Positions 28,086-46,597 of a DNA stretch of 62,175 nt are shown here, in pieces. The stretch lies in contig JAHJMO010000012.1 in assembly GCA_018821245.1 (NCBI GenBank), positions 1 through 62,175 of the forward strand. Direction: 5' to 3'. Under the pieces are notes generated by a model. The model saw only the letters and a program-made list of their open reading frames with translations. It was not told the origin of the DNA and ran no database searches. Source of the DNA: Patescibacteria group bacterium. GTDB taxonomy: Bacteria; Patescibacteriota; Microgenomatia; UBA10105; UBA927. The position numbers and the translations under genes were made by a program. Numbering within the stretch: position 1 is the first letter of the stretch; each line of letters opens with the position of its first letter.

Positions 28086-28097
28086 ACACCACCATGA

Positions 28098-29497: not shown

Positions 29498-30292
29498 ATG
29501 CATGCCCTACTAGATTTGAAAGATGTTCCACAACTCGCTGATCTTCCGAACCCTCCCGGACAACTTTTTTTCATCGGAAAACCGCACAAACAATTATTTC
29601 AAAATTGCGTTTCCATCGTCGGATCGCGTCAAATAACGGAATACGGAAAACGCGTGATAGAACTGCTCGTTCCGAAACTCGTCTTTGAGAAAAAAGTTAT
29701 TATCTCGGGATTTATGCGCGGCGTCGATCAATATGCACACCGGGCGTGTGTAGAAAATGGCGGAAAAACCATTGCGGTTTTGGGTTGGGGCATCGACACC
29801 ATCCTTTCTCCGGAAGATAAAAAATTAGCAGATGATATTGTTTCTCACGGCGGTATTCTTCTGTCAGAGTGGCAGACACAACGATCGACTCTCTGGACGT
29901 TTCCTGTCCGAAATAGAATTGTCGCAGCCTTGGCACAGGAAGTGTATATCATTGAAGCAGGACTGAAGAGCGGATCGCTCATTACTGCTAATTGGGCAAT
30001 AAAGCTGAAACGAAAACTGTTTGCCGTTCCGGGCTCCGTAACGAGCCGTGTCTCAGAAGGAACAAATATGTTAATTGCAAATGGCCTTGCAAAAATGTGG
30101 TGTGGCATACAACAACCTACACAAAAATCTTCAGACGATCCCATTCTCCACGCCCTTGAACAAGAACCATTAACGATTAATCAACTATCTCGAAACCTCA
30201 ACAAACCAATTGCAGAACTTGGCGCTTCCCTATCACTACTACTTTTATCCGGACAATTAGTTGAACGCGACGGTGTATACTATAAAAAATAA
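29498..30292 (+). CDS. Short DprA-family paralogue
   Basis: SGFMRGVDQYAHRACV, GWGIDTILSP, FPVRNRIVAALA and a winged-helix-like tail. ATG at 29498. Confidence 0.7.
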   Translation: MHALLDLKDVPQLADLPNPPGQLFFIGKPHKQLFQNCVSIVGSRQITEYGKRVIELLVPKLVFEKKVIISGFMRGVDQYAHRACVENGGKTIAVLGWGIDTILSPEDKKLADDIVSHGGILLSEWQTQRSTLWTFPVRNRIVAALAQEVYIIEAGLKSGSLITANWAIKLKRKLFAVPGSVTSRVSEGTNMLIANGLAKMWCGIQQPTQKSSDDPILHALEQEPLTINQLSRNLNKPIAELGASLSLLLLSGQLVERDGVYYKK

Positions 30293-30293
30293 C

Positions 30294-31832
30294 ATGCTGA
30301 CCAAAATCCGATCTACTGCCAATATAGGACTAACGACTATTCCCATTGATGTTGAAGTGGATGTGGCAACTGCCGGATTCCCTGGATTTACGATAGTCGG
30401 GCTTGCCAGTAAAGCAGTTGAAGAAGCTCGTGAACGGGTAAAAACAGCTATCATTAATTCCGGTTTTGATTTTCCTCCCAAAAAAATAACCGTCAACCTC
30501 GCTCCAGCGGATATCCCAAAAGACGGAGCTGCATACGATCTTCCTATTGCTGTTGGAATTCTTATTGCAAGCGAACAATTACCGGACGAGATCGTATTTG
30601 ATCTTAAAAAACAATTTTTTTACGGAGAACTGTCACTTGATGGAACACTCCGGCCAACACGCGGGGTACTCCTTCTTGCATTATTTGCAAAAAACATCAC
30701 CGGATCACAACTATTTGTCCCGGAGGCGTCAGCAAATGAAGCATCTGTTATCAATATTCCTGTCTATCCCATACCAACGCTCCACCGACTCATCCAGCAT
30801 TTCGTGAAAACAAAACCAATTGATACCCTTTCGTATCTTCCCATAAAAGACGCGTTGGATAGCGAACCGCCGGAGTTTGACCTTTCGGAAATTGCCGGAC
30901 AAGAGCAAGCAAAACGGGCCATCATTATTGCGGCATCAGGCGGACACAACATGCTTATGTTCGGACCGCCCGGAACCGGAAAAACAATGCTCGCCCGCGC
31001 ACTTCCCGGAATTTTGCCGCCACTCACCGAACAGGAAGCGCTTGAGGTAACGCGCATCTATTCCATTTCCGGACTCCTTCCTCCCGGTGCGTCACTTGTG
31101 ACCAAACGGCCGTTCCGTGCACCCCATCACGGCGTATCAACAGTAGGCCTTATCGGCGGCGGCAGTAATCCCATGCCCGGAGAAGTCAGTCTTGCACATC
31201 TGGGCGTGTTATTCTTGGACGAAATGCCGGAATTTCCGCGAAGCGCACTTGAAAGTTTGCGCCAGCCCATGGAAGACGGCACGGTTGAAATAGTACGCGT
31301 TGCCGGCCATGTCCGCTATCCGGCAAGTTTTACTCTCTTATCAGCGATCAATCCCTGCCCGTGCGGGTATCTCGGTCACCCAAAACGAACGTGCACCTGC
31401 AGCGAGCGGCAGATCGCACGATACCGTCACCGGATTTCCGGGCCGATCCTTGACAGGATCGATCTTCATGTTTCCGTATCTGTTATTGCAGTCGATAAAC
31501 TTTCACAGTCACTTAAAAACAATCCCAATGCTATCACGTCATGTCAGGCAAAAAAAATGGTCATGGACGCGCGCGAAGTTCAAACAAAACGCTTTGCCAA
31601 CACGAAAATCTACACCAACTCCCAAATGAAAAATAAAGACGTTAAGCGATTTTGCATCCTTACGCCGGAATCTGAAAATATATTAAAACTCGCCTCAGAA
31701 ACCTACAATTTTTCCGCTCGATCCTACATCCGTATGATTAAAGTGGCAAGAACGATTGCAGACCTTGACCATAAAAAGGATATTCTCCCCATACACGTTG
31801 CCGAGGCCCTGCAATACAAACAGATGGTATGA
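30294..31832 (+). CDS. comM: YifB/ComM Mg-chelatase-like AAA+ ATPase
   Basis: Lon-protease-like N domain, Walker A (FGPPGTGKTMLA), LFLDEMPEF, and the Cys cluster CPCGYLGHPKRTCTC. Confidence 0.9.
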   Translation: MLTKIRSTANIGLTTIPIDVEVDVATAGFPGFTIVGLASKAVEEARERVKTAIINSGFDFPPKKITVNLAPADIPKDGAAYDLPIAVGILIASEQLPDEIVFDLKKQFFYGELSLDGTLRPTRGVLLLALFAKNITGSQLFVPEASANEASVINIPVYPIPTLHRLIQHFVKTKPIDTLSYLPIKDALDSEPPEFDLSEIAGQEQAKRAIIIAASGGHNMLMFGPPGTGKTMLARALPGILPPLTEQEALEVTRIYSISGLLPPGASLVTKRPFRAPHHGVSTVGLIGGGSNPMPGEVSLAHLGVLFLDEMPEFPRSALESLRQPMEDGTVEIVRVAGHVRYPASFTLLSAINPCPCGYLGHPKRTCTCSERQIARYRHRISGPILDRIDLHVSVSVIAVDKLSQSLKNNPNAITSCQAKKMVMDAREVQTKRFANTKIYTNSQMKNKDVKRFCILTPESENILKLASETYNFSARSYIRMIKVARTIADLDHKKDILPIHVAEALQYKQMV

Positions 31833-32187: not shown

Positions 32188-32223
32188 TAAATTGACTACG
32201 CGGCCGCTATGGTAATTTACAAG
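32188..32223. repeat. NotI-centred element, copy C
   Basis: taaattgactacgcggccgct atggtaatttacaag. Confidence 0.8.
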
Positions 32224-32378
32224 TTTGATTTATATTATTTCACCATTTAAAGGCCGTTGGCTTGGTTTCCCCAATAACTCTTTGGGGATTTACTAATAGA
32301 ATATCCAGTCAAGCATGCCCAAACAATGTTAACACAAGAGGTTGCCAAAATGCAGTATAATAAATATTGCGGATAAGT

Positions 32379-32990
32379 ATGAGGCCACTACAAAAAGAAA
32401 CAATCTATCCCCCGTATGATCCTCGTGATCAGACGCTTGCATATGACGAGCAAGGCCAGCCGGTATTTGGTGCCGAACTCGTCGAACCGGAACCCGCAAT
32501 GGACGCTGTAGACCCTGCAACGTCCGTGGAAGTCTTCAAGTGTGTACAATCCGATATATTGGTGACAGGTGCGGTAAGAGAAAAAAATATTGCAGATACT
32601 TCATTAGATACTGCCACGCAACCGCGGCGCGGCGAGATCATTATTGGCCGCGATACCAACGAACAAACCACGCACGCCCGGCCTTTTCGCGCCAGAAAGC
32701 ACGAAGTGCCGTCAGTCATCTTTGATTACAATCAGGCAAAACGTGCTCTCGATCCGGCTTTTGAGGCAAGAAGTTTTGCGGGAACCGCCCTGCATGAAGC
32801 GCACACACGGGCGCACTGGAATGTAAGTCAAGACTGCGATCCTGTCCTGGGACCCATGCGCCAGGTAGTCCTCGGCGGCAACAGAACCTCAATTCAACAG
32901 GAATTTGAACAAGCGCTGGCAGAAACGGAAAAAAAGGCAAAAAAACCTCAAACTGTGTATGCGATCGGGGAAGACGGCGTTGAGTGGTAG
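32379..32990 (+). CDS. Hypothetical 203-aa protein (intact copy of the duplicated gene)
   Basis: The ATG lies 19 nt after a TATAAT (32355-32360). Conserved core QPRRGEIIIGRDTNEQTT...FDYNQAKRALDPAFEARSFAGTA. No motif I can name. Confidence 0.6.
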   Translation: MRPLQKETIYPPYDPRDQTLAYDEQGQPVFGAELVEPEPAMDAVDPATSVEVFKCVQSDILVTGAVREKNIADTSLDTATQPRRGEIIIGRDTNEQTTHARPFRARKHEVPSVIFDYNQAKRALDPAFEARSFAGTALHEAHTRAHWNVSQDCDPVLGPMRQVVLGGNRTSIQQEFEQALAETEKKAKKPQTVYAIGEDGVEW

Positions 32991-33020
32991 GCGCTTCCTG
33001 CGCACAAGCTCATCTGGTAA

Positions 33021-33049
33021 TTGACTTCGTCATGTTCTTATCCTATGAT
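33021..33049 (+). promoter_or_regulatory. Promoter-like TTGACT-17-TATGAT
   Basis: -35 at 33021-33026 and -10 at 33044-33049. The duplicate is at 28362-28391. It would give a ~130-nt hairpin-rich leader before the ATG at 33180. Confidence 0.4.
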
Positions 33050-33179
33050 TATACTGCTTTGGCTTGTGTATACAAGCTTTCTGGCTCTTTTACAAAACTC
33101 CCGAGGGCGAAAAGAAGGAATCGAACCATCGATTACTTCTTTCCGCCCTTAGCCGCCAAAAACAGCCAATGGAGAAAAA

Positions 33180-33422
33180 ATGGACATTCAGCAACATCCC
33201 CTGGTTTCACATTTGCAAGTAGAATTAACTACCGGATTCTGGGCATCGGTAGGAATCCCCGAACTGTTGATCACCCAAGCGGGCAGACTTTCAATCGCCG
33301 AAGAATTACGATCGGCAGACCTTGCCCAGTGGGACGATGACCTACGCTATGGTCGAGTACTCAAAGCCAAAGCAGGTCTTTGGGATATGATTCGGGCTGA
33401 ATCTGAAATGACAGCTTGCTAA
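33180..33422 (+). CDS. Hypothetical 80-aa protein
   Basis: ORF MDIQQHPLVSHLQ... Copy A keeps only the first few codons (28506-28516) before diverging. Confidence 0.4.
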   Translation: MDIQQHPLVSHLQVELTTGFWASVGIPELLITQAGRLSIAEELRSADLAQWDDDLRYGRVLKAKAGLWDMIRAESEMTAC

Positions 33423-33753
33423 CCTTCAACGGCTAAAGGCGGATGGCAGACGGGATACCCACGCGTGGTCTCGTCTGACCAAAAATTCCGAAGACGGTAA
33501 GTCTTCGTTATCACAGGGTCCCGCAATTTTTTTTTGCGGAAAGGGAGTGGATATAAAGGCAGAGCAAGGTCTTATTGGAATTGTCCATCGGACAATAATC
33601 GCCCAATATATACCTTCCTCCCCCTTTTCCACTCCCGACCCTGCAATTCTCCCTCTCTCACAATTCTCTACATCCTGCGCTATTCTCCATGTCTCGCTAT
33701 TCCCTCTCATTCCCTCTTCTCCATAGTATGAATATACACCCACGACCGTATCT

Positions 33754-34539
33754 TCATATCCTAACTATAGATTGATACATCTCATGTGCCTTCTCCCCAA
33801 GCCAACCATTTGGTAATAGAGAAAAAGGTAATTGCGGATCATCACGTAATATCAATTTGTACATAACAGCCAGCTGAAATAGCGTTCGCCTCTTTTTCAC
33901 TGCTTCATCTATAAATTCTTGGTAACGCCGATTTAATGCATCTAGCTTGTATACGCGTACCAGAAGATTGATAAAATTCCTATCCCCCAGTGTTCCCTCT
34001 TTGTCCAATTTTGAAACTAACACTGTGCCGGTTATATGATGATCCTGCATAAATTCATCAAGGATCCCTTGAGGGTTATACGAAGTCAACCATACGCTTT
34101 CCTGCAATAATCCACAGCCGATGCGGCGTAAATATTCCCGTAACAGATCTCTGCTGTTGCGCGTTTTTTCCGGGATATCGTAAGAAATCAAGTATATATA
34201 CCCATCCCACTGTCGCTTCTTTTGATATGACGGCAACAAACTACCTAAGCGCTTCTTTCCCGCCTCCGTAATTTCGATATCGAGCAAAGTTTTTTTCTGC
34301 TTTTGCACAATGAACTTTTGTTTCCGAAGTGTGACGAGAACCTGTTTGAAGGTTTCGTAATGAAACTCCTCCAAAGCTTTATCTGCTTCCCGAAACATGC
34401 GATAAGCACCAGCGCTCGTTGGCGACTTCCCAATGCTTGCGCCAACCAGATACATCCACCATAGCACGCCATTGACCGCACTTCTCACTAACCCTTCTGT
34501 GGCCAGATTTACCAATATTCTTGCGTCTGAATTTGTCAT
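33754..34539 (-). CDS. PaaX-C-terminal-like / Cas2-fold-like protein (paralogue B)
   Basis: WDGYIYLISYDIPEKTRNSRDLLREYLRRIGCGLLQESVWLTS. Confidence 0.55.
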   Translation of the reverse strand: MTNSDARILVNLATEGLVRSAVNGVLWWMYLVGASIGKSPTSAGAYRMFREADKALEEFHYETFKQVLVTLRKQKFIVQKQKKTLLDIEITEAGKKRLGSLLPSYQKKRQWDGYIYLISYDIPEKTRNSRDLLREYLRRIGCGLLQESVWLTSYNPQGILDEFMQDHHITGTVLVSKLDKEGTLGDRNFINLLVRVYKLDALNRRYQEFIDEAVKKRRTLFQLAVMYKLILRDDPQLPFSLLPNGWLGEKAHEMYQSIVRI

Positions 34540-34735: not shown

Positions 34736-35260
34736 TCACAAATTTGCGCGCAGTGCTTCCGAATCCGGAAAGCGTTCCGCAAGCTCATGGATATCCCTGA
34801 CTGACAACTTCTGCATGACTTCTCTATCGGGGAATACCGGAACAGGCTTTTCTGTGTGTGATAGCTTGAGGGCGTCAAACTGTAATTGTCTTAAGTCTTT
34901 TACACTTATCTGCCCATCAGGTATTGGCGGAAACTCTACTTCGCAGCCTGCAGCGCAAGGACAATCCGTACAATGGATAGGTTGATTGAGTAAATTGTAG
35001 ATCGGTCCTAAATTAGCTGATCCGACAATACAATGGGTATCAGGCGCTTCTGGGTTAACACTTGTAATAAACACGTCATCCGGTCCCGTACGATGGATAA
35101 TTAACTCTCGCCCATCAACAGGACAATTAATTGTCCTTTGGCTATATACCTCTTGCTCTGCTGACATATGTTGTGAATTATAGCAAGTCCGGGCGGGATA
35201 ATCACATTTGAGGTTATCAAAATCAAAATATGAATAGACAAAAAGAGCGTGTTCTGGCAA
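34736..35260 (-). CDS. Cys-rich hypothetical protein (174 aa)
   Basis: ORF with a TTG start (next ATG at codon 32). Contains the cluster HCTDCPCAAGC. No named motif. Confidence 0.4.
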   Translation of the reverse strand: MPEHALFVYSYFDFDNLKCDYPARTCYNSQHMSAEQEVYSQRTINCPVDGRELIIHRTGPDDVFITSVNPEAPDTHCIVGSANLGPIYNLLNQPIHCTDCPCAAGCEVEFPPIPDGQISVKDLRQLQFDALKLSHTEKPVPVFPDREVMQKLSVRDIHELAERFPDSEALRANL

Positions 35261-35525: not shown

Positions 35526-36461
35526 TTAACGAACCTGAAATTCGTTAATCCATTTGACGTAATCCGGTTTATCTAGTCCATTTGCTGAGGCCAATAAATC
35601 GCTCAGGTTTAAATGAAATCTCGATACTAACGTATCTACCGTATCCACCACCTCCAGAAATGGTATCCCGCTAGCTAAGGACAATTCTACACCTGCCCCT
35701 GCTACCGCCTGCCACATCAAGGTAGAAGATTGTGCCGCCGATCGCATGTAAACCCCAAACAACTGTTCTGCACCGTTTCCCTGTTCTGTTTGAGCAAGCC
35801 TACACCAATCCAACGCTGCTATTACTATTTCAGAAACATACTTTTTTCCATTACCATATTTTGTAATGAATAAATTTAATAATGCAAACAGCCTGTTTCC
35901 GTTTAGATCGTCTTTTATACTGTATATCTTACGATAATATTGGACCTCGTCTGGAGTCAGAAAAGTTACTTTCGGTGGTTTCTCCCAAAACCCGTCAGTC
36001 TCTTTCTCTTGCTTTTGTAAATCTATGTTTTCTTTCAGAAGGTACAACAGTTTACCACCTGCTTCTTTTCCGTTGCTGGTCAACCATTCCCCAATTACCC
36101 CGTTAATTACTTCTACATTGTCTTTCCCCTCCATTGCTAAAACTGCCGCCTTCCTTGAGAGCCGATCCAGAAAAAAACTCCCGGCGGCAACGTACATTCG
36201 ACTGGCTTCTGCGGGACTATGAGCTAACGTAGAGACGTAAGATTCATCTCCGTTTAAAAATCGCTCCATCAAGCTTCTTTTGATAAGAACATGACCTAGC
36301 TCAAGTGTATTACATCCGACTTGTGCACTTTCCAGATAATCAATCATGTCATTCAATAGCGGTAGCGCCGCCAAACCATCCGGCGTGGAGCACCCAGCAA
36401 AATTATAATGCCCTCTGTAGCCAGATTGCTGCAAAAAGTCTCTTGTTTCCATTAAACCCAT
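35526..36461 (-). CDS. Hypothetical protein (311 aa)
   Basis: ATG-initiated long ORF with its own upstream AT-rich region. No named motif. Confidence 0.55.
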   Translation of the reverse strand: MGLMETRDFLQQSGYRGHYNFAGCSTPDGLAALPLLNDMIDYLESAQVGCNTLELGHVLIKRSLMERFLNGDESYVSTLAHSPAEASRMYVAAGSFFLDRLSRKAAVLAMEGKDNVEVINGVIGEWLTSNGKEAGGKLLYLLKENIDLQKQEKETDGFWEKPPKVTFLTPDEVQYYRKIYSIKDDLNGNRLFALLNLFITKYGNGKKYVSEIVIAALDWCRLAQTEQGNGAEQLFGVYMRSAAQSSTLMWQAVAGAGVELSLASGIPFLEVVDTVDTLVSRFHLNLSDLLASANGLDKPDYVKWINEFQVR

Positions 36462-36581
36462 ATATCAGATATTAATTTATAGAAATAGCTAAGAACACAA
36501 TATTTTATATCTTATAGTCTATCACAAAAGGATATAATTTGCAAAGACTAAAGGCTCTTCCTGAATGCAAACTGGCAGGCT

Positions 36582-37769
36582 CTAGCCAAATATAGACTGC
36601 TCATCCGGAAGAGGACTAAATAAACGCCGGGAATCCTGTTGTAGTGCAGCGATTGCCGCCTGAAGCGCTCCCCGCTGCCCTGTCTGAATTCTCGAAAGAG
36701 CCATCCTCTGGGCATTAAGTCGTTCAATAATTGCCGCCACAGCTAAATCGTATAATCCCATAGCGCTGACGCGTATCCCTGTCAACCCCATATTGGCAAT
36801 CTCTGCTTGTTGAGCCAGTACGGTATGGATCATCTGTCTGGCGTTTACCAGAGACGGTGCGGCGCCGGTGATAAATTTAATCTGTCCGGTTCCGACAAGC
36901 AGATCCGGCAATACATCGTCCTGCACCCGCAACGCGTCAACGAGTTGACGCAAAATATCAGCGCTTGCAATGGATTGGCGGATTTCCTCTCCAATGTCAA
37001 GGCTGCCTATCGGCCTATTTGCCAAAGCATTTAGTCCTGCATCAATCGTGCTTTGGCTAGACATAAACACATTCCCCTGCCATAAAACATCCTGCAATAC
37101 CGATTCTATTTGTGCTAATTGCTCCTCGCCCTGACCCTGACTGCGCGCAAGAAGTTCTCGTATGGTTGCCTCCATTTGGCCGGCGCCGTAACCGGCCACC
37201 TCGGCCCAAAAATCAAGATATTCTAGAGCGGGCCGGTTGGCAGCAAGAACGTACCAAACCGGGTGTCCTTCTTCCGGATGACCAATGACTAACAGATTAT
37301 CCCGCACATCTTCTACCATCTGATTGAAGCGCTTCGCGTCTTTTCGTGACAGACCTTCATCCGCTTCCCAAGGCCGCCACGTGTGATCCAGCGCAGCCGG
37401 TAGAATGCCGGGGTGATCGCGAAGCCATGCCAAATCAATCCTGCCCAGCGCCTGGGCAAAATCATGCAGGGCACCTACGGCATAAATTTGCGCCTCCCCG
37501 TGGCTGCTTGCTTGAGCAATTACATAAGAAAGATAATTTTGCGCCTGCGCGTCCGGTTCCCAGCCCTGTTGTGGTATTAGAGGCAAATCTAAATCAGAAT
37601 CTAAAGACCGGATAAGATTATCTGCTCCATTACCTAAAGCATCTGTGACCGGAACCATGGCCTCCATTATCTTGCCTGCTGCCACATCCGGGGAAAGATC
37701 TGATAAACTTTCGTTTTCTTTTGGTCCTGGTGGTTGCATAGTAAAATTCTTCACTTCATTGCATGGCAA
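36582..37769 (-). CDS. Orphan operon gene 4 (395 aa; start TTG 37769 or ATG 37739)
   Basis: Long ORF abutting or overlapping the upstream gene. No named motif. Confidence 0.6.
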   Translation of the reverse strand: MPCNEVKNFTMQPPGPKENESLSDLSPDVAAGKIMEAMVPVTDALGNGADNLIRSLDSDLDLPLIPQQGWEPDAQAQNYLSYVIAQASSHGEAQIYAVGALHDFAQALGRIDLAWLRDHPGILPAALDHTWRPWEADEGLSRKDAKRFNQMVEDVRDNLLVIGHPEEGHPVWYVLAANRPALEYLDFWAEVAGYGAGQMEATIRELLARSQGQGEEQLAQIESVLQDVLWQGNVFMSSQSTIDAGLNALANRPIGSLDIGEEIRQSIASADILRQLVDALRVQDDVLPDLLVGTGQIKFITGAAPSLVNARQMIHTVLAQQAEIANMGLTGIRVSAMGLYDLAVAAIIERLNAQRMALSRIQTGQRGALQAAIAALQQDSRRLFSPLPDEQSIFG

Positions 37770-39075
37770 AATATCCCGATGAGTGAATAAATCGGTTAAC
37801 CTGGTCCCAGGAAATACTGGATAATGTGTTTACGCCTCTGCGCTGGGTTTCGAGCCCCAAAAACGCATGCCGGGCGCCAAATCCTATCGCCGCCATAGCT
37901 TCGGGAGATAAAATAATTTCTTTACCACGCTTTGCTTCTTCCATCTGCACCACTACCAGATGATTAAATGTGCTTCTTAATAATTCCTGAAGCAACCGCG
38001 CCTCTTCCAATCGGACTGCGACTGATTGTTGTAAACGCCCTGAAAGTCGAGCCAAACCCTGCCTATCGTCACGGGCAAGCCTGCCTTCCTGAAGCATCTT
38101 TTGCGTCAAAGCTGCGACCATCGCGTCGGACATCTTATCTGTTCCCATCCGAACTACCGCCCTCTGAGCACGATTATAATCTTCAATCGTTTTGGCCATA
38201 AAACAGGAAACTGGAGCGCCATCAGCGACATCCACCTGAATAAGTATCGGATCAACAACCGCTGCAGCTGCGGCGACATGGGCTGCTCCCGCGGCAATAT
38301 GCGCCGCTATGGCTGCCGCTCCTCCACCCAACCCCGCAATAAGACCACCTAAAACGGCCCTCCCGCGACTGGTCTTCGCAGATGGATCCGGATCTTTTCC
38401 ATGATCCGCCGCGAAAGGAGGCGAAAAAACAACCGCTGAATCTCTTGTCGGAACTGCCATAACCGGCGTCAACGTAACCCTCGCCCAGCCGTCTTCAAAG
38501 ACAACAGCGCCCTCTTGCCCCCGATGGATCGGCTGGATAGTAAACCGGTCCTGCGGAAGATTAAGGAGTTTACTTACCCCCCGTCTATCTACCCGTGCAG
38601 TCTTGCGGCCCGGAAGATCCTCGCCGATTAACAAAAATTCTGTTTGTGATTCCGGCTCTTCCTCTCCAAGCTCCGCGCCGGCACCGAAAACTTCATCTGT
38701 TTCTCTTCCTTCCCGATCCAATAAATAGTCTACCTGTGCTACTAATCTATCCCGCAGGGAATCTGCATCTGATTCTGGTAGTCTTGATGCCTGGATTTCA
38801 ATTTCAGGAAACTCTGCCTCTATAAGTCGAGGTACAGGTAAATTGTGAGCTGGCAAAGACGGTTCGTATAAACGAATTTGACCGAGGGTATCTTCCGCCG
38901 CATTATCCGGTAATAAAGGAGTGCCGTTGATCAAAATATTTCCTCCTCCCTCCCATAAGGCATCAGCAACCCCCCGAGGGGAATTCAATTGACCCAATAA
39001 CAAAGCCCAGACTGCACTAGACCAACCGGTTTCCTGCGCTGCTTCCCTTTTATTCCTTTCTCTGTAATCATTCAT
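37756..39075 (-). CDS. Orphan operon gene 3 (439 aa) with a Gly/Ala/His hydrophobic tract
   Basis: ATG preceded by AAGGAG. Contains GGLIAGLGGGAAAIAAHIAAGAAHVAAAAAVV. Confidence 0.65.
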   Translation of the reverse strand: MNDYRERNKREAAQETGWSSAVWALLLGQLNSPRGVADALWEGGGNILINGTPLLPDNAAEDTLGQIRLYEPSLPAHNLPVPRLIEAEFPEIEIQASRLPESDADSLRDRLVAQVDYLLDREGRETDEVFGAGAELGEEEPESQTEFLLIGEDLPGRKTARVDRRGVSKLLNLPQDRFTIQPIHRGQEGAVVFEDGWARVTLTPVMAVPTRDSAVVFSPPFAADHGKDPDPSAKTSRGRAVLGGLIAGLGGGAAAIAAHIAAGAAHVAAAAAVVDPILIQVDVADGAPVSCFMAKTIEDYNRAQRAVVRMGTDKMSDAMVAALTQKMLQEGRLARDDRQGLARLSGRLQQSVAVRLEEARLLQELLRSTFNHLVVVQMEEAKRGKEIILSPEAMAAIGFGARHAFLGLETQRRGVNTLSSISWDQVNRFIHSSGYFAMQ

Positions 39076-39084
39076 ATTCTCCTT

Positions 39085-40335
39085 TCATTGAGCAGGCTCC
39101 TGAGCTTCAATAAATCTCCCTACCGGCCGGTCCGTCGAAAGAAACTGTGCCGCCGGACAAAAATAATTTTCTTCTGCAAAGCGTACCAGAGCGGCAGGCA
39201 TACCTGTCATTGGAAAAAGCGCCATTCCAAAGGCTAATTGATTAGAGACGCGGGGCAATCGAGCTTCCTGCAATACGGCATAATTGCCCCAGACAATTTT
39301 TCCGGCCGCCCCGCATACTTCCTGCACGTTATCACGGAAATGTTTGTCAGCCCGGATAGCAGCCTGCTGAACTTCCCAGCCGATAGTCTGATTTCCGTTC
39401 CACCCCAATTCACGAAGCCGTACGCTTCGTTTTATGTCGCTTGCGCTCATCAAGACCAAAAGGTCAACCGGCTGCCCCAATTGCCATCTCCGTGTCAGTT
39501 CAGCCAACGTCACATTGACTGATTCTATTTGTTTGTCTTGAAAGATTGTGTAACGGCCATCCTGATGCCGTGTTTGAACCTGTCGGCTGGCAACAACCTG
39601 CTCTCTTTCAGTCTGAACTGTATGCTCCAATAAATCCGGACCGGAAAAAAAATCCGGCCGGAAATCACGCTCCAAACCAAGCATTGTTTCAAATACTGAT
39701 TGGAATAACCGACGGTAATCATCCGCTGCACCAGGAATATCCGCGAGGCCGGCAGGAAACATAACCGGCGGATCAAGCACGCGGCGTTCACTGAGTATGT
39801 GATCCCGGGCAACCATATGCGTCGTTCTAAGTGTTTTTTCTCCCACCGGCATCATGGCGGGTATACGGACAGTTAAGGCGCTGGGCAAATCCGGAACAAC
39901 GACGACATTCGTAATTTTTAACCGAGGCATCGTCCCCAATCGCATCGTTTCAGACAACTGAGCAACCCTATAGCGGTCACCGGAATAGGATGATACGCCG
40001 TACTGAAGTTGCGCCCTTTTTAAATCCGGGTCTAAAGCGCGCTCCTGACTCTGCACAGGAGCAGATTCTCCCTGCGTCCACGCCTCCCATAATTGCGAAG
40101 CTGACTGATCCACCAAATCCCTGTATGCACCCGAACACGTAAGCCAGTTTATTGTGCTAGCGGCAAGCTGTTCACCGCGCTGTCCAGCCAAATTTCTACA
40201 ATAGAGATTACCTTTCCTCCACTCAAAAAATGGCGAAGAAAACAAAAATTCCAACAACTCTCCAGAGCGATCTTCTTTCGGAACAACTGCCGGTCTTTCT
40301 GTTTCTATTCTTGCTGATTGAATTTGCATTCTCAT
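39085..40335 (-). CDS. Orphan operon gene 2 (416 aa)
   Basis: ATG preceded by an AGGAG that lies inside the tail of gene 1. No named motif. Confidence 0.65.
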   Translation of the reverse strand: MRMQIQSARIETERPAVVPKEDRSGELLEFLFSSPFFEWRKGNLYCRNLAGQRGEQLAASTINWLTCSGAYRDLVDQSASQLWEAWTQGESAPVQSQERALDPDLKRAQLQYGVSSYSGDRYRVAQLSETMRLGTMPRLKITNVVVVPDLPSALTVRIPAMMPVGEKTLRTTHMVARDHILSERRVLDPPVMFPAGLADIPGAADDYRRLFQSVFETMLGLERDFRPDFFSGPDLLEHTVQTEREQVVASRQVQTRHQDGRYTIFQDKQIESVNVTLAELTRRWQLGQPVDLLVLMSASDIKRSVRLRELGWNGNQTIGWEVQQAAIRADKHFRDNVQEVCGAAGKIVWGNYAVLQEARLPRVSNQLAFGMALFPMTGMPAALVRFAEENYFCPAAQFLSTDRPVGRFIEAQEPAQ

Positions 40336-40338
40336 ACT

Positions 40339-41208
40339 TTATCTCCTGTTCCGGGTATAACTGGTTCGTTCAACTCTTGTTCTCCGATTTTGCTCCTGCA
40401 ACTTCGCGCCGCGGCTTAACCTATGGCCTGCAACTGCCAACGCCTCCAAACCGCCTCTTGTTAAAACCGCTACACCGACCCCTATACCGATAGGGATTAG
40501 CGCAATTGCGCCGTAATAAATCCAGTCTGCTTCTGTCACTTTATGCTTCGGCCGGGGAGTGCTTTCGGCGGTCTGAACCGTAGCTTGTGCAATTACCGTC
40601 GATTCCGGGGTTAGCGTCGCTTCCGGCGTTGCTGTAACGACAATGACGATAGGCGTCGGCGGTTCTTCCCGGGTTGAAGTTGCCTGTGCTTGTATGGTTG
40701 ATTCCGGCACAACAACGGCCTCTATCTGCAAACCATTGACAGTAATCCCGTTAACGACAACTGTTGAATCCAGCCTGCTCGCCCAGACGTGCACCGCGTC
40801 GTCACGTTCACCACCGGACACACAGGCCCAACCGTCAAATCCGCTATCTCCGCCGATGTAGCCGGGAAGCTGGCGGTTGAAATGCATCCAGATTGCTTGC
40901 TGTAGTGCATCTACTGCCTGCGCGCCGAGCATACCCTGAAGCCACAGAATCATATTGCCTTTTGTATCTGCCAAAATCGGGTCTGTGCCCTCTGCCGCAC
41001 AATCTTTTAGACGGCCTTGATACGGGTCATCGTCGTTGCAGTCGCACATCGGCGGATTGCCGGGCGGCGGAGAATCTGCATCTCTTACGCCAAATCGTTC
41101 GTATTGCGACGCCGGAATCTTCCAGACTTCTGCCGGCTGAGAGCGCGCGGCAAGATCACGGGCAATACCCGGATCGAATATTGGTTGACTGTTCATTTCT
41201 ATTAACAT
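40339..41208 (-). CDS. Orphan operon gene 1 (289 aa), single-pass membrane protein
   Basis: Cys-containing N-terminal domain, Thr/Pro-rich linker, a TM segment (WIYYGAIALIPIGIGVGVAVL) and a basic tail. Confidence 0.6.
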   Translation of the reverse strand: MLIEMNSQPIFDPGIARDLAARSQPAEVWKIPASQYERFGVRDADSPPPGNPPMCDCNDDDPYQGRLKDCAAEGTDPILADTKGNMILWLQGMLGAQAVDALQQAIWMHFNRQLPGYIGGDSGFDGWACVSGGERDDAVHVWASRLDSTVVVNGITVNGLQIEAVVVPESTIQAQATSTREEPPTPIVIVVTATPEATLTPESTVIAQATVQTAESTPRPKHKVTEADWIYYGAIALIPIGIGVGVAVLTRGGLEALAVAGHRLSRGAKLQEQNRRTRVERTSYTRNRR

Positions 41209-41239
41209 GATTCTGACGCGATAAACCTAAAGTTTCGAC

Positions 41240-41268
41240 ATTATAGGTTAAATTTACGCATCTGTCAA
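41240..41268 (-). promoter_or_regulatory. Consensus sigma70-type promoter TTGACA-17-TATAAT
   Basis: The minus strand has TTGACA (41268-41263), a 17-nt spacer and TATAAT (41245-41240), 31 nt upstream of the ATG at 41208. Confidence 0.7.
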
Positions 41269-41552: not shown

Positions 41553-41737
41553 AAATCTCACCTCCTAACAAAAAATACTAAATTTCTATATATATTTAAA
41601 TTCTAAATTTACAGTTATCGATTAACAATCTGATTGTTATTTAATGATTAACTGATCACCGTCAATTGACGAATTGCGCAAACTGCTCTAGTTTTTCAAA
41701 GTGCAATTCTTTCTTATTTTTTAACCTACAACCTACA

Positions 41738-41797
41738 ACTTACCACTTACAACCAATAATTATTCTTTTTTTTGTTTTTGTTTTTTTAACTAACAAC
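41738..41797. repeat. 60-bp direct repeat, copy 1 (identical to 42541-42600)
   Basis: acttaccacttacaaccaataattattcttttttttgtttttgtttttttaactaacaac. Confidence 0.9.
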
Positions 41798-41807
41798 TTA
41801 CCACTTA

Positions 41808-41837
41808 TCCCGCAAAGCGGGATCCCGCTTTGCGGGA
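41808..41837. repeat. 30-bp perfect palindrome (double hairpin)
   Basis: tcccgcaaagcggga tcccgctttgcggga. Flanked by cttacaac-type words. Confidence 0.9.
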
Positions 41838-41866
41838 CAACTTACAACTTACAACTCTTTTCTCCC

Positions 41867-41895
41867 TTGACAACCATCTATACATTGTCTATACT
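41867..41895 (+). promoter_or_regulatory. Promoter TTGACA-17-TATACT for the RelB-like gene (leaderless geometry)
   Basis: -35 at 41867-41872 and -10 at 41890-41895. The ATG at 41904 is only 8 nt after the -10. Confidence 0.65.
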
Positions 41896-41903
41896 TTATA
41901 TAT

Positions 41904-42182
41904 ATGACTACTTCACTTATTACCGTCCGCACCGATACCAAGCTCAAAGAAAAAGCGATGAATATTGCAAATTCTCTCGGCTTTTCTCTAAGCTCGCTGG
42001 TCAACGCTTATCTTCGTCATTTCGTCAAAACCAAAACCGTGCATTTTGAGGAATCCTACGAACCAACCCCGTACCTTAAGCGTTTAATAGCGCAGGCGCG
42101 AAAAGAACACGAGGAAGGTAAGTCTATTTCGTTCTCCAACCCGCAAGATGCTATCAGCTTTTTGGATACTGTGATAAAATAA
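41904..42182 (+). CDS. RelB/DinJ-family antitoxin
   Basis: N-terminal ribbon-helix-helix pattern ITVRTDTKLKEKAMNIANSLGFSLSSLVNAYL. Confidence 0.8.
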   Translation: MTTSLITVRTDTKLKEKAMNIANSLGFSLSSLVNAYLRHFVKTKTVHFEESYEPTPYLKRLIAQARKEHEEGKSISFSNPQDAISFLDTVIK

Positions 42183-42188
42183 AAAATA

Positions 42189-42458
42189 ATGCGGATTGAT
42201 TATTCACGGCCTTTTCTTAAACAGCTTAGGAAAACTCCTGTTGAGGTACGAAAGGTTTTTCAATCCCGGCTCGATCTCTTTGTTTCTAATCCACATCACC
42301 CTCTTCTTAGAAATCATAAGCTTACCGGCAAGTACCAAGGTTGCCGGAGCATCAACATCACCGGCGACTGGCGTGCCATCTATGAAGAACGTGACGAACT
42401 GTTCGAGCCATATATCCTGTTTCTTACCCTCGGCACCCACAACCAGCTCTACCGATAA
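42189..42458 (+). CDS. RelE/YafQ (ParE/RelE superfamily) toxin
   Basis: 89 aa; ...HKLTGKYQGCRSINITGDWRAIYEE...LTLGTHNQLY. Lies 6 nt after the antitoxin. Confidence 0.8.
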   Translation: MRIDYSRPFLKQLRKTPVEVRKVFQSRLDLFVSNPHHPLLRNHKLTGKYQGCRSINITGDWRAIYEERDELFEPYILFLTLGTHNQLYR

Positions 42459-42510
42459 ATGCATATATAATTTTTTAACGTGCAATTTAATTTCTTTGTT
42501 TTCCAACTTA

Positions 42511-42538
42511 TCCTGCAAAGCGGGATCCCGCTGCGGGA
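42511..42538. repeat. Degenerate copy of the double-hairpin palindrome
   Basis: tcctgcaaagcgggatcccgctgcggga. Confidence 0.8.
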
Positions 42539-42540
42539 CA

Positions 42541-42600
42541 ACTTACCACTTACAACCAATAATTATTCTTTTTTTTGTTTTTGTTTTTTTAACTAACAAC
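42541..42600. repeat. 60-bp direct repeat, copy 2
   Basis: Identical to 41738-41797. Confidence 0.9.
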
Positions 42601-42859
42601 CTACAACTTACAACTATTCTCCCGCTCCTTTCCGCCAACAATCCGCCTTTGTGTCATCCCCGACTTGATCGGGAATCCACGTTTTCTTCCGAACGTATTC
42701 TTGGTAAAAAAGAGCTTCTTTATGAGTACATTGTTGTTTTTTGGCAAGATGCCAAAATTGCAAACAACAAGGTATCCACCCTCATAAAGAATTTCTCCAG
42801 TAATGATTACAAGGTTGTCCGCCTTGGGCAGACATCGCCTTGCTGCGATGAATGAGTGT

Positions 42860-44383
42860 TTATGCGACAGCGACACATGCGAGGCGGAGAATAACCACCA
42901 AGATGGTCCCCAACGCAACGCCGTCCCAGGCAGTATATTCGAAAACCCTCTGAACAACTTGAGATAGAGGATTCTCGCCTGTGGCTCTAGTCGCAAGCCT
43001 CTCGCCTGTGCGACGCAGGATCATTGCAGTCAGGATAGATGCTGCAACTGCAACGATTAGGGACAGAGCAGGTTGGAGCTTAATACTCGCCAAATAGAAA
43101 GCCACGACAACAATGACTGCTGAAATTATGGCTTCCCACCGGAGATCGCCATCCACCGGAGCAACGATATCAATGATGTAGTTGACAATGGCAACCACCA
43201 GTATGGTGTAAATAAGCAGGGTGAATTTAATCAGCTCGCCCTGCTTGGCGAGGATCGCTGCAGACAAATCCTGAATCGCATACAGCGGTTGGGAGGGTAC
43301 GTTGAAGGCCACCTGCATAGCCCCCATATTACCAAAAATGGCCGCTCCCAATGCTAGCAGTCCGAAGTATACCCCCAAACTGCTCGTGTCGCGATTTCCC
43401 GTCAGAGCCTTGACCGTGACGACGGCGATGATGACAAAGCTCACTAGGATGGCCACGCCGCGCTGATCCATTCCAAATAACGTGATGTTGAAGGCCATTA
43501 TGGGGGCCCACATCACCAAGTAATTGGCAGTCGCTCCAACGATCGCAAACACCGCATCGCCTATCTGCAACCGCTCCTTTCCGTCGAGATATCCAAGTAA
43601 TGGAATACTCAAGGCAGCTAGAACGAGCAGAATTTGGGTTGGACCATACCAATCCGCGCTCTTAAGGTCTACCGTTTCAGCCTCGGTGACTATAAATTTG
43701 GGCGGTTCCGCGGCTTCTGGCTGTTCGGCGGATGGAGACTCGGCCTGCGGCTGGACTGGCGACTCGGAAGTCGGACCTCCAACGATCGACTCCCATGCGA
43801 ATAACCCACCGGCCAGCAGGACAGTGACCACAGACGCTCCGACGATCACCCATGTCTGCCAGCGGAATTTCCCGCGGCGACGAGGTGATGTTGAAACGGG
43901 CCGGGCGGTGGAACGACGTGAGGGCTCAGGTCCTAGGCGAGTGTAGCGCGGTGCGGGACGCCAAGTGCCGGGCCGAGCAGCGGTGTGCGTATCGGGCTTG
44001 ACGGGCACGGCGGATGCCCTTCGTCCATCATCGGGGGGCGGGGGGGCTTCGGGCTCGCTGGGTGAAAACCTGCTGGCGCGCCGCTGACGAAGCTCGTCGG
44101 CCATGCTGGGGCGATTCGTCACGGTGACGGGCGTCGCTGACTCGGCGGCGGGTTGCGCACGGTGAGTCGGCGTTCCAAGGTTGTTCAAAATATCGTCAAC
44201 CTTTTTACCCCTGTTATGCAACACGAGAGCCATTCTCGCCAAAATGATTTGATGCTGGCGATCTCTCGTGCCCGCCAATTCCAAGATTTTTTTAGAGACT
44301 TCCAGCGCCCTCTCGTCAAAAGCCTCCTCTAGTTGATCGAGGAAGGCCTGGGGCGCCTGCCATCCATTAATTTGGATAGTCAT
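42860..44383 (-). CDS. Hypothetical polytopic membrane protein (507 aa)
   Basis: AGGAGG SD. Soluble N domain, very GC-rich Pro/Arg-rich linker, then about 8 TM segments. Confidence 0.6.
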   Translation of the reverse strand: MTIQINGWQAPQAFLDQLEEAFDERALEVSKKILELAGTRDRQHQIILARMALVLHNRGKKVDDILNNLGTPTHRAQPAAESATPVTVTNRPSMADELRQRRASRFSPSEPEAPPPPDDGRRASAVPVKPDTHTAARPGTWRPAPRYTRLGPEPSRRSTARPVSTSPRRRGKFRWQTWVIVGASVVTVLLAGGLFAWESIVGGPTSESPVQPQAESPSAEQPEAAEPPKFIVTEAETVDLKSADWYGPTQILLVLAALSIPLLGYLDGKERLQIGDAVFAIVGATANYLVMWAPIMAFNITLFGMDQRGVAILVSFVIIAVVTVKALTGNRDTSSLGVYFGLLALGAAIFGNMGAMQVAFNVPSQPLYAIQDLSAAILAKQGELIKFTLLIYTILVVAIVNYIIDIVAPVDGDLRWEAIISAVIVVVAFYLASIKLQPALSLIVAVAASILTAMILRRTGERLATRATGENPLSQVVQRVFEYTAWDGVALGTILVVILRLACVAVA

Positions 44384-44387
44384 TTCT

Positions 44388-44642
44388 TTACTCCTCCTGT
44401 TCTACCCACGGAACAGGTTCTGAACTAGAAACCCGGATTATGGGCATGCTTTGTTGGGCTGCGATCACATCGATGAGCTTCAATGAAACTTCGATGGGCT
44501 GTGATAGGGGCTGCAATGATCTTCTTTGAATCCGGGCAGCAATTTGATTTGGCAAGGAAGTTCGCCTTCTCCCTTTTTTGACAGCCTCGCAGGCGGTGGA
44601 TGTCCGCTTGGCTGGAATTTTATCGTTTTTGATGGAGCTCAA
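44388..44642 (-). CDS. Small basic hypothetical protein (84 aa)
   Basis: TTG start. Its stop is 4 nt before the next ATG. Weak evidence. Confidence 0.35.
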   Translation of the reverse strand: MSSIKNDKIPAKRTSTACEAVKKGRRRTSLPNQIAARIQRRSLQPLSQPIEVSLKLIDVIAAQQSMPIIRVSSSEPVPWVEQEE

Positions 44643-44697: not shown

Positions 44698-44991
44698 ATG
44701 AGCATTCAAACCATTATCACCTCACTTACACCGTATCATCCGCAAAAGATCATCCTTTTTGGTTCGCGCGTGCGCGGCGCCGCCGACTCTTCAAGCGATT
44801 ATGATATAGCAATTATTAAAGATACCGATGAACCTTATCATGATCGCGTAATTGCGGCGCGCAGACTCATACGCTCAACCACGCCGATTGACCTTTTTGT
44901 GTTTACAAGCAAAGAACTGAAAGAAAAAAAACTTACCAATCCGTTGGTTGCCGAGATCGTTTCATCCGGAAAGGTTGTCTATGAATCGTAA
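44698..44991 (+). CDS. Nucleotidyltransferase-domain protein (MNT-type antitoxin)
   Basis: ILFGSRVRGAADSSSDYDIAI (GS-x9-12-D-x-D). Confidence 0.8.
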   Translation: MSIQTIITSLTPYHPQKIILFGSRVRGAADSSSDYDIAIIKDTDEPYHDRVIAARRLIRSTTPIDLFVFTSKELKEKKLTNPLVAEIVSSGKVVYES

Positions 44992-45367
44992 AGTAATTGC
45001 CGCAAATTGGCTTGCGAAAGCCGCTGACGATCTTCGCTGGTGCCAAGCAAGCATCAGCGGAAATGTCTGGCACGGCGCTTGTTTTTCGGCACAGCAAGCG
45101 GCTGAAAAAGCACTCAAAGCGTTTCTTTATTCTCAGGGCAAACAACTACATAAAATCCATGATCTTTCAGCACTGCTAGAACAGTGCCGCACGATTGACA
45201 CATCGTTTGAAACTATCAGAGAACGCATACTGCCGCTTATCGATTACTACTTACAAACTCGCTACCCTGATATGGGTGATTTTATTGACTATACTAAGGA
45301 AAAAGCGCAACGCGCGCATGACGATGCTCGGATGATTGTCAACTTTGTTTCTTCACGGATCAAATAA
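44981..45367 (+). CDS. HEPN-domain protein (toxin partner of MNT)
   Basis: The ATG at 44981 overlaps the MNT stop. Contains AEKALKAFL, KIHDL and YLQTRYPD. Confidence 0.8.
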   Translation: MNRKVIAANWLAKAADDLRWCQASISGNVWHGACFSAQQAAEKALKAFLYSQGKQLHKIHDLSALLEQCRTIDTSFETIRERILPLIDYYLQTRYPDMGDFIDYTKEKAQRAHDDARMIVNFVSSRIK

Positions 45368-45507
45368 TTCTTTTCTGTTAGCTCTTTGAGCTCCATCAAT
45401 ATAACTTACAACTTACAACCTGTACTTCCAGTTTTTTTTCATCATACTAGAGTATTTTAAAGAGCTATAATTGCAGGCGTTGTGAAATTAGCGCTTTTGC
45501 CAACTTA

Positions 45508-45537
45508 TCCCGCAAAGCGGGATCTGGCTCTGCCAGA
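45508..45537. repeat. Variant double-hairpin element
   Basis: tcccgcaaagcggga tctggctctgccaga, preceded by ccaacttat and followed by caacctacaac. The word aacttacaacttacaacc lies at 45403-45420. Confidence 0.8.
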
Positions 45538-45650
45538 CAACCTACAACTATTTCGGCATGTGGAATGCCCGTTTTCCGGTGTCTATAAAAACACCAGAAG
45601 CTTACGCTTAAATAAAGTTAAACGCAAACTTCCGGCGCAGGCTTTTTTAT

Positions 45651-46580
45651 TTATTCCGTCCACCATTTGCCTCCTCTTTTGGAAGCATTGCCTATTGCCT
45701 CTCTAACCTGCATGCCGTATATGTCATCCGAATCAATATGTCCGTGAAGAACTTGGCTTTTAACACCATAAAATGTACTCCGACCACGTTTGCCTTCAAC
45801 TATAACCGTCTGGAAACTCTGCTCCGGCATCTGTACGATCACCGGCGGCTCGCGCTGAAATTCAGCATGCACAGTACTTGGTCCTCTTTCAAAAGACACC
45901 TCTTCTCCTTCTCTGCTCCGAGCGCCCCACCGGAATCCTCCATCATGTTGGGTAATTTTCCCGCTGGTAATCGTCGGATCTAAATACATCGCGTTCAAAG
46001 CCTGAAAAAGCGCCGCCAGCTGCGACCTCTGTTCGGCCACAACCAGAAGCGACTGGGCAAAGCCAGCCCGCAGCGCGAGATGCGCCTCGTCATCCGGCAT
46101 GCCGAGATACTGCATTATTTCCAAAATCTTCCTTCTATCGAAATGGGTATCCTCATACGCAAACGGCATAAGCCCGTCCTGCGTCCGGTGGTTTAAGCGC
46201 ATAAGCATAATGTATAATTGTTTATCTTCGGGACTTATATGCGGCTGAATAGCCAACCGGTCGCGGCCAACCGGAATTGCCGGGGCAATCGGCATGAGGG
46301 TTTCAACTTCCGGCGGCAGTACCTCTGAGTCAGTAACAATCGGCGCCCCCGCGACCATATCACCATCCGGCTGATCGACGTTGACCAGACTTCGTGGCGG
46401 AACAAGAATTTGGGGGTTCGCTGTAGGATTTTGAACAAATCTGTCCGGATCGATATTCTTCAAATGATCAATCGGCGCAAGAATCCGCCGAACGAAATCG
46501 GCAATCTCTCTATCTGACGGCGGCCCTTCTTTAAATACCATAATGTATGATAAACTGGGCAGATGGCTTAATATGGGCAA
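45651..46580 (-). CDS. Hypothetical protein (309 aa; start TTG 46580 or ATG 46541)
   Basis: Long ORF 17 nt downstream of the 760-aa gene. No named motif. Confidence 0.5.
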   Translation of the reverse strand: MPILSHLPSLSYIMVFKEGPPSDREIADFVRRILAPIDHLKNIDPDRFVQNPTANPQILVPPRSLVNVDQPDGDMVAGAPIVTDSEVLPPEVETLMPIAPAIPVGRDRLAIQPHISPEDKQLYIMLMRLNHRTQDGLMPFAYEDTHFDRRKILEIMQYLGMPDDEAHLALRAGFAQSLLVVAEQRSQLAALFQALNAMYLDPTITSGKITQHDGGFRWGARSREGEEVSFERGPSTVHAEFQREPPVIVQMPEQSFQTVIVEGKRGRSTFYGVKSQVLHGHIDSDDIYGMQVREAIGNASKRGGKWWTE

Positions 46581-46597
46581 GGAACGCTATTATACTC

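Follow-up and report, generated by a model that had tools for sequence, protein, structure and literature searches.

A candidate lineage-restricted operon of four orphan genes in a contig of an uncultured Patescibacteria group bacterium

Surface proteins that sortase anchors in Gram-positive bacteria end in a Thr/Pro-rich stretch, a hydrophobic helix, and a basic tail of 5 to 10 amino acids (aa). Pore-forming colicins and glycine-zipper toxins carry a Gly/Ala-rich tract with GxxxG spacing between soluble domains. Kiwa and the PADLOC "PDC" candidates, membrane-anchored antiphage systems whose proteins have unknown folds, are small operons that encode one or more membrane proteins but no recognizable enzyme and that lie beside toxin-antitoxin modules. 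Features of all of these recur in a set of four genes, here named g1 to g4, within a 62,175-nucleotide (nt) stretch of a Patescibacteria group bacterium (assembly GCA_018821245.1, contig JAHJMO010000012.1), which is referred to as the window. The favored interpretation, to which an even chance is given, is that g1 to g4 constitute a lineage-restricted operon at a fixed chromosomal position that would encode a stoichiometric, nonenzymatic, membrane-tethered complex.

The g1 product shares the order of elements seen in sortase substrates, but its tail is about 40 aa long, no LPXTG-like motif precedes the helix, neither g1 nor its orthologue has an N-terminal signal peptide, and no Pfam or NCBIfam family matched it. 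The tract in g3 resembles those of colicins and glycine-zipper toxins in composition, spacing, and placement between soluble domains; however, it is central rather than near the C terminus, and g3 had no match to the Colicin family in Pfam or to sequences in the PDB. The tract is also only marginally hydrophobic (Kyte-Doolittle [KD] value, 1.56 to 1.83) and includes Lys and Glu in one relative. Unlike Kiwa and the PDC candidates, the cassette has no PADLOC match, keeps its chromosomal position, and is not known to confer protection. Many small genomes of uncultured bacteria contain orphan, lineage-restricted operons of hypothetical proteins, and g1 to g4 resemble these in being unannotated orphans in a few metagenome-derived genomes. 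They differ from such operons in an unusually clear layout of regulatory sites (a promoter that is both perfect and conserved, and a second, invariant element of 37 nt) and in modular evolution, with a g3-g4 core set against variable g1 and g2.

Gene content, expression signals, and distribution of the cassette

The coordinates and lengths assigned to four minus-strand open reading frames (ORFs) in an earlier sequence-only reading of this DNA (289, 416, 439, and 395 aa) matched the ORF table (Table 1). Two other loci carry the cassette with genes in the same order, which answers the question of co-occurrence that the reading had raised. Contig L003 (Logan SRR22388093) contains a complete cassette, with g1, g2, g3, and g4 of 279, 406, 431, and 382 aa, and contig L002 (JGI 3300038466) begins inside g2, so that the C terminus of g2 is followed by g3 (434 aa) and g4 (385 aa). 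P0004, a more remote homologue of g2, is 35 to 37% identical to the window g2 and lies on a separate 132-kb contig (JGI 3300075153). Whole-gene ratios of nonsynonymous to synonymous divergence (dN/dS) were between 0.20 and 0.48 for every pair (Nei-Gojobori), and G+C content by codon position followed the order GC1 > GC3 > GC2 in g2 to g4, with GC1 raised in g1 also. Because orthologues occur in the same order, and because of the dN/dS values and the codon-position pattern, g1 to g4 are considered established as real genes kept by purifying selection. The reading had held that ORFs with neither homologues nor a coding signal might not be genes; orthologues and dN/dS values indicative of coding were both found.

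The start of g4 was placed at the ATG at 37739, because in each of the two relatives an in-frame TAG closely precedes the matching ATG. The N termini of the relatives align from this Met, and most database sources, including NCBI, hold the 385-aa form. The alternative start offered by the reading was thus the right one, and the 395-aa version from the TTG at 37769 was not retained. The short distances that had been described between genes are present in the window: 3 nt between g1 and g2, 9 nt between g2 and g3, and, between g3 and g4, an overlap of 14 nt if g4 is read from the TTG or a gap of 16 nt if it is read from the ATG. G+C content is 50 to 54% across g1 to g4, compared to roughly 45 to 47% for most of the window; the elevation noted earlier is therefore real, but it is not peculiar to the cassette, with equally high values at 24 to 28 kb and 42 to 50 kb. 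The excess falls mostly at first codon positions and therefore reflects amino-acid composition and is no mark of foreign DNA.

Operon organization is indicated by location on one strand, short gaps, a single conserved upstream promoter, and an order shared by all loci, and terminator-like sites within the cassette showed no excess over shuffles. The textbook promoter reported ahead of g1 was confirmed as the single perfect match to TTGACA-17-TATAAT in the window (0.01 expected from dinucleotide-preserving shuffles). L003 keeps both hexamers, with a spacer of 18 nt. Between the -35 hexamer and the g1 ATG, the window and L003 differ in approximately 6 columns, one of which is a 1-nt gap; for this pair of genomes, divergence at the four-fold sites of mreB and of pbp2 is 0.67 to 0.75, which amounts to near saturation. 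The promoter and leader are judged from this comparison to be conserved far above neutral expectation. No significant RNA fold (z = 0.72) and no Rfam match were found for the leader.

The AGGAG and AAGGAG boxes that had been placed ahead of the ATGs at 40335 and 39075 are present, the first lying 7 nt before the g2 ATG, within the last codons of g1, and the second directly after the g2 TGA, ahead of g3. The Shine-Dalgarno context of g3, TAAAGGAG(A/G)AAT-ATG, is common to all three genomes. A Shine-Dalgarno box is lacking from g4, which starts 16 to 17 nt past the g3 TGA after a conserved spacer in 3/3 genomes, a geometry that fits termination-reinitiation coupling to g3.

Searches of curated libraries bore out the earlier impression that no motif or family could be named. 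In Pfam-A and NCBIfam, the best E values for g1 and its neighbors through g6 (g5 and g6 being downstream ORFs) were 0.03 to 0.24, all far short of curated cutoffs, and for the homologues on L002, L003, and P0004, compared to Pfam only, nothing was better than an E value of 0.088. PADLOC-DB 2.0 had no match for these proteins, for the small upstream ORF g0, or for the homologues; the one line returned concerned an inserted 248-aa gene of L003 (E = 0.017). Nothing of note was found in PHROGs (weak lines at E = 0.2 to 0.35 and one match, at E = 0.008, to low-complexity Thr/Pro sequence), and the best E value against PDB chains was 0.18 (phmmer and hmmsearch, with sequences and profiles). By all comparisons run, g1 to g4 fall in no known family, an assignment that is provisional because the structural models, described below, were of too low confidence for folds to be compared.

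Relatives were equally scarce in broader collections. No match to g3 or g4 was found by tblastn in 50,697 phage records and 72,556 plasmids, no relative of g2, g3, g4, or g5 in 2.9 million viral contigs, no relative among GTDB representatives (one genome for each of 185,579 species) with g2 or with the g4 profile, and none among JGI metagenome contigs with the g3 profile or with the 22-nt core of the TTGCAAATnATATCCTTTTGTGATAGACTATAAGAT element, described below. A word-indexed search of 5.8 billion protein clusters returned g2 itself only, and the g4 profile, compared to the same clusters, returned exactly three, corresponding to the window, L002, and L003. When g2, g3, and most of g4 were combined into a single query and compared by HMMER to all 1.84 billion cluster representatives, five proteins were recovered: g2 itself, one homologue each of g3 (68% identical) and g4 (74%), P0004 (37%), and a C-terminal fragment of g2. 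The window proteins were present on four contigs, which are assemblies of one population, and apparent variants of g1 and g5 reflected only differing start-codon calls. Public copies have no informative name; the one displayed is a JGI "hypothetical protein." The cassette is on these searches restricted to three related uncultured bacteria in one narrow lineage.

Protein features and modular divergence

The predicted g1 protein consists of an N-terminal domain with 4 conserved Cys residues, a conserved Thr/Pro-rich linker, a transmembrane helix, and a basic 40-aa tail, in agreement with the layout drawn by eye (helix KD, 2.0). The helix spans approximately residues 229 to 250, with a KD19 maximum of 2.03, compared to 2.54 for the L003 orthologue; over the whole protein, g1 is 48% identical to its L003 orthologue (dN/dS, 0.25). 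Assignment of g1 as NlpC/P60-like (DC..HV) or transglutaminase-like (GWAC) was considered and dropped, with the His residue not conserved in L003 and no Pfam match. The g2 protein is predicted to be soluble, with no hydrophobic segment, and is the fastest evolving of the four (38% identical to that of L003; dN/dS, 0.20); its conserved part is the C-terminal 100 aa.

In g3, a variable N-terminal half is followed by the hydrophobic Gly/Ala/His tract that had been pointed out earlier (GGLIAGLGGGAAAIAAHIAAGAAHVAAAAAVV; approximately residues 240 to 274) and by a strongly conserved C-terminal domain. The core of the tract, AGLGG-A-A-AAHI, is invariant among homologues, and the tract as a whole is marginally hydrophobic and shorter in relatives, with the Lys and Glu residues found in L002. 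Overall, g3 is 59 to 68% identical to its relatives. The most conserved member is g4 (71 to 77% identical to relatives), an acidic protein (50 Asp+Glu compared to 27 Lys+Arg) with no hydrophobic segment. Its AlphaFold2 secondary structure is all helical, at low confidence (pLDDT, 35.3, from a three-sequence alignment); the g2 model had a pLDDT of 30.8. No export signals were seen in g2, g3, or g4 in reading their sequences, their profiles are not paralogous to one another (hhalign), and no paralogues of g1 to g6 occur elsewhere in the window. A robust transmembrane helix is accordingly predicted in g1 only, with a marginal tract in g3 and none in g2 or g4. The proposal that the four genes form a membrane-associated system is secure for g1, the helix of which is robust in both orthologues, and is weaker than was claimed for the set as a whole.

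Divergence between the window and L003 was uneven along the cassette. Divergence at four-fold sites was 0.61 in g2, 0.53 in g1, 0.40 in g3, and 0.36 in g4, and amino-acid identity was 48% for g1, 38% for g2, 59% for g3, and 77% for g4. The nucleotide match between the two genomes runs from the g2-g3 spacer to the g4 stop. The C terminus of g2 in L002 is 78% identical to that of L003 and 41% identical to that of the window. Within g3, omega was 0.35 to 1.9 in alignment columns 1 to 180, in the N-terminal half, and about 0.2 at the C terminus; values for g4 were 0.03 to 0.6, with most of g4 and the C-terminal third of g3 at approximately 0.03 to 0.3. The simplest reading of these patterns is that g3 and g4 form a conserved core pair that moved or recombined between lineages after the genomes split and that was joined to fast-evolving g1 and g2.

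Companion genes and other features of the window

Beyond the cassette, homologues of g5 lie downstream of g4 in L002 (31 to 33% identical) and in L003 (41 to 42%). The promoter- or operator-like element TTGCAAATnATATCCTTTTGTGATAGACTATAAGAT is present once in the window and in four copies in the three genomes, identical but for one position, and each copy precedes, by approximately 25 to 60 nt, either g5 or an accessory gene that has been inserted ahead of g5, after g4 (468 aa in L002 and 248 aa in L003). With this element as a promoter of its own, the conserved companion g5 would therefore be outside the g1-g4 transcript. The 311- and 174-aa orphan ORFs that had been listed downstream both exist, and relatives carry g5 and a g6-like gene: g6 is weakly homologous to a 133-aa gene directly upstream of the g1 promoter in L003 (27% identity over 100 aa; pairwise E = 5e-6) and appears to be a loosely associated companion. 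The small upstream ORF, g0, is present with the strong Shine-Dalgarno box reported for it (75 to 78 aa; AGGAGG) but has no counterpart in L003.

The flanks of L003 match those of the window. Upstream, both have a 507-aa polytopic membrane protein and an 84-aa gene, for which no Pfam or NCBIfam family was found; downstream, they share mreB, a gene of 190 to 200 aa, pbp2, and a GT4 gene. Identity between the two genomes is 72% over the C-terminal 357 aa of the 507-aa protein, 82% for MreB, and 57 to 70% for PBP2. The 507- and 84-aa genes, in the same relative place in L003, may be functionally linked to the cassette. P0004 is located approximately 5 kb from mreB-pbp2, with a 360-aa gene before it and an IS30-type transposase directly after it. 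The P0004 contig also lists genes of 313 and 757 aa near the g2 homologue, and the window has orphan genes of 309 and 760 aa with no Pfam match (G+C, 51 to 52%), the likeness between these being by size only. In L002, a 191-aa orphan gene (2896 to 3471, minus strand) is convergent to g4. Its counterpart in L003 (8868 to 9436, minus strand) is split into ORFs of 105 and 95 aa, probably a frameshifted pseudogene, and it is absent from the window.

Table 1. Location of the cassette, its companions, and other features of the window
Feature	Position	Strand	Remarks
g1	40339-41208	minus	289 aa (285 aa if the start is Met5)
g2	39085-40335	minus	416 aa
g3	37756-39075	minus	439 aa
g4	36582-37739	minus	385 aa from ATG; in the ORF table, 36582-37769, 395 aa from TTG
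Promoter, sigma-70 type	41240-41268	minus	TTGACA-17 nt-TATAAT (12/12), 31 nt before the g1 ATG
g1 leader	41209-41239	minus	31 nt, no Shine-Dalgarno box
TTGCAAATnATATCCTTTTGTGATAGACTATAAGAT (37-nt element)	36509-36544	minus	Promoter/operator-like; TTGCAA-17 nt-TAGACT, extended -10 TGn
g5	35526-36461	minus	311 aa (308 aa from Met4), conserved orphan companion
g6	34736-35167	minus	143 aa from Met32 of a 174-aa ORF (gene caller start), small Cys-containing orphan
Polytopic membrane protein gene and 84-aa gene just upstream	42860-44642	minus	507 aa, N-terminal region Pro/Arg-rich; 84 aa
RelB/YafQ module	41735-42610		Between the 507-aa gene and g0/g1
RelB-type antitoxin	41904-42182	plus
YafQ/ParE-type toxin	42189-42458	plus
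Direct repeats	41735-41807, 42538-42610		73 nt, 97% identical, flanking the RelB/YafQ pair
MNT/HEPN-like pair	44698-45367	plus	Pol-beta-type nucleotidyltransferase (97 aa) overlapping a HEPN-domain protein (139 aa)
REP-like elements	41803-41849, 42506-42552, 45503-45549		Intergenic; (ACAACTTAC)n runs, then palindrome CCCGCAAAGCGGGATCCCGCTTTGCGGG
Orphan genes	45651-48880	minus	309 and 760 aa
Segmental duplication	27512-29413, 32301-34539		About 2 kb, blocks 76-95% identical
PaaX-like pair	28625-29413, 33754-34539		53% identical
Third PaaX-like gene	61062-61730
Hairpin	33532-33648		About 115 nt, in block 33482-33649
36-nt motif with GCGGCCGC	28601-28636, 29419-29454, 32188-32223		Three copies; TAAATTGACTACGCGGCCGCTTG...TTTACAAG
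First DprA paralogue	within 20143-21267	minus
Second DprA paralogue	within 29465-31832	plus
16S rRNA gene, bacterial	13773-15388	minus	Full length, 1616 nt

The surroundings of the cassette are variable. The RelB/YafQ module occupies a place where L003 has other toxin-antitoxin-like genes; the variable genes of L003 include HicB, PhD/PIN, and IS200-like genes. The nucleotidyltransferase and HEPN genes of the window look like an MNT/HEPN toxin-antitoxin pair. The REP-like elements recur beside toxin-antitoxin modules, and a related copy in L003 (135 to 242) is 82% identical to window positions 45507 to 45400.

Several further repeats were observed. The segmental duplication flanks dprA-comM and contains a 62-mer that resembles a promoter, small orphan genes, and the PaaX-like proteins, the middle domain of which is Cas2-like. 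The block holding the hairpin is 82% identical to L003 13102 to 13267, where the copy adjoins an IS200/IS605-type Y1 transposase gene; only spurious, miRNA-precursor-like scores were obtained from Rfam, and the hairpin may mark the end of a transposon or belong to a palindrome-associated element. Copies of the 36-nt motif are located at the ends of a PaaX-like gene and of the dprA-comM block and may represent a shared operator or terminator. The two DprA paralogues are 34% identical, and a ComM/Mg-chelatase-like ATPase gene overlaps the end of the second dprA, placing natural-transformation genes near the variable region. The 16S rRNA gene exceeds the 1533-position model in length, probably through insertions. 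No 23S gene was found on the expected side of it within the window, where a YfhO-family gene and tRNA-Cys/tRNA-Ile occur instead.

Favored interpretation, alternatives, and significance

If g1 to g4 encode a membrane-tethered complex, the single sigma-70-type promoter would give strong, largely constitutive transcription, and coupled translation would yield the four products in fixed ratios, with g4 probably translated by termination-reinitiation after g3. The g1 protein would anchor the assembly at the cytoplasmic membrane. The g3 and g4 proteins would form the conserved core pair, with g3 possibly dipping into the bilayer by its Gly/Ala helix, and g1 and g2 would be the fast-evolving, exchangeable part. 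Because a conserved core is combined with divergent partners, because synonymous divergence is low in g3-g4, and because the setting is one of toxin-antitoxin and insertion-sequence genes, the complex would be expected to act in conflict or in contact at the cell surface (with a phage, host, or neighbor), as opposed to in metabolism or information processing. A bolder form of this proposal, considered unlikely, is a new membrane-tethered conflict or interface apparatus of novel folds, for phage defense or symbiont-host contact, in which an exchanged g3-g4 effector core would be joined to diversifying g1-g2 specificity subunits, with g5 and the inserted genes driven separately by the 37-nt element.

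Several points weigh against the favored interpretation. The single transcript, the complex, and the membrane localization are all inferred, and the transmembrane helix is firm in one of the four proteins, g1. The positive-inside rule places the 228-aa N-terminal domain of g1 outside the cell, yet a signal peptide is lacking from the protein. Constraint on the mRNA, and not gene exchange, could also account for the low synonymous divergence of g3-g4. With the models at pLDDT values of 31 and 35, remote homology to a known fold, even an enzyme, may exist. The translational coupling proposed in the sequence-only reading agrees with the Shine-Dalgarno boxes at or inside the ends of preceding ORFs, but gaps of 3 and 9 nt occur in the window only: the distances from g1 through g4 are 15, 41, and 17 nt in L003, and those from g2 through g4 in L002 are 59 and 17 nt. 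The conflict-interface proposal draws on the neighborhood and on evolutionary patterns in three genomes only.

Among the alternatives, an undescribed antiphage or abortive-infection system ranks first, although it is judged unlikely. In such a system, g1 and g2 would sense infection, the glycine-zipper helix of g3 would enter the membrane and depolarize it, and g4 would restrain g3. A defensive role agrees with the very patchy distribution of the cassette, with its position in a variable stretch (RelB/YafQ, MNT/HEPN, and PaaX/Cas2-like genes in the window; HicB, PIN/PhD, IS200-like, and IS30 genes in relatives), with the rapid divergence of g1-g2 relative to a g3-g4 core that shows signs of exchange, and with the invariant motif of the g3 tract. 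However, zero PADLOC models matched the members or their homologues, Pfam and NCBIfam revealed no nuclease, ATPase, nucleotidyltransferase, or other usual sensor or effector domain, and the marginal hydrophobicity of the g3 tract, charged in L002, is at odds with a depolarizing helix. A toxic effector would not usually be expected behind a promoter of perfect consensus, and the cassette, unlike typical strain-variable cargo, is found at one chromosomal place even though MreB is only 82% identical between genomes. Ranked next, and somewhat less credible still, is a lineage-specific envelope scaffold, either an accessory of MreB-PBP2 elongation or a surface or attachment structure, abundant and unrelated to conflict. 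The strong conserved promoter and stoichiometric coupling would suit abundant structural subunits, the Thr/Pro-rich linker of g1 resembles the wall-spanning type, a conserved polytopic membrane protein is encoded upstream in both the window and L003, and mreB, pbp2, and GT4 genes lie within approximately 5 to 10 kb in the window, in L003, and on the P0004 contig. This proximity may nevertheless be incidental, since several kilobases of variable genes intervene, and a scaffold of this kind is difficult to reconcile with the high amino-acid divergence of g1 and g2, with g2, g3, and g4 having no export signals, and with the absence of the family from every other genome searched, further relatives that carry mreB among them.

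An origin from an integrated mobile element or virus, of which the cassette would be a remnant or cargo, comes third and is improbable; the products could, for example, be structural or entry proteins of an unknown virus of this lineage, and g1 would then be a spike-like protein anchored in the membrane. Synonymous divergence of g3-g4 below that of the host backbone, G+C content above that of the immediate flanks, nearby insertion-sequence and toxin-antitoxin genes, and the Thr/Pro stalk and C-terminal anchor of g1 would all be in keeping with it, but the PHROGs, phage, plasmid, and viral-contig searches described above gave no noteworthy match or relative, no integrase, terminase, or capsid gene and no att-like flanking repeats were found around 34.7 to 41.3 kb, and the cassette holds the same chromosomal position in divergent genomes. 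Chance open frames in G+C-richer DNA would account for the lack of homologues in curated libraries; they are excluded for practical purposes by the same-order orthologues, dN/dS values of 0.2 to 0.5, the codon G+C pattern, the Shine-Dalgarno boxes, and the conserved promoter.

The present value of the locus is that of a well-documented candidate and not of a discovery; no specific activity is indicated. Experimental handles are offered by the perfect conserved promoter, the 37-nt regulatory element, and the conserved g3-g4 pair. If the complex is real, at least four protein families would be without relatives among approximately 15 billion predicted proteins outside one narrow lineage, and the locus would illustrate the way in which uncultured bacteria with small genomes invent machinery specific to their lineage and keep it.

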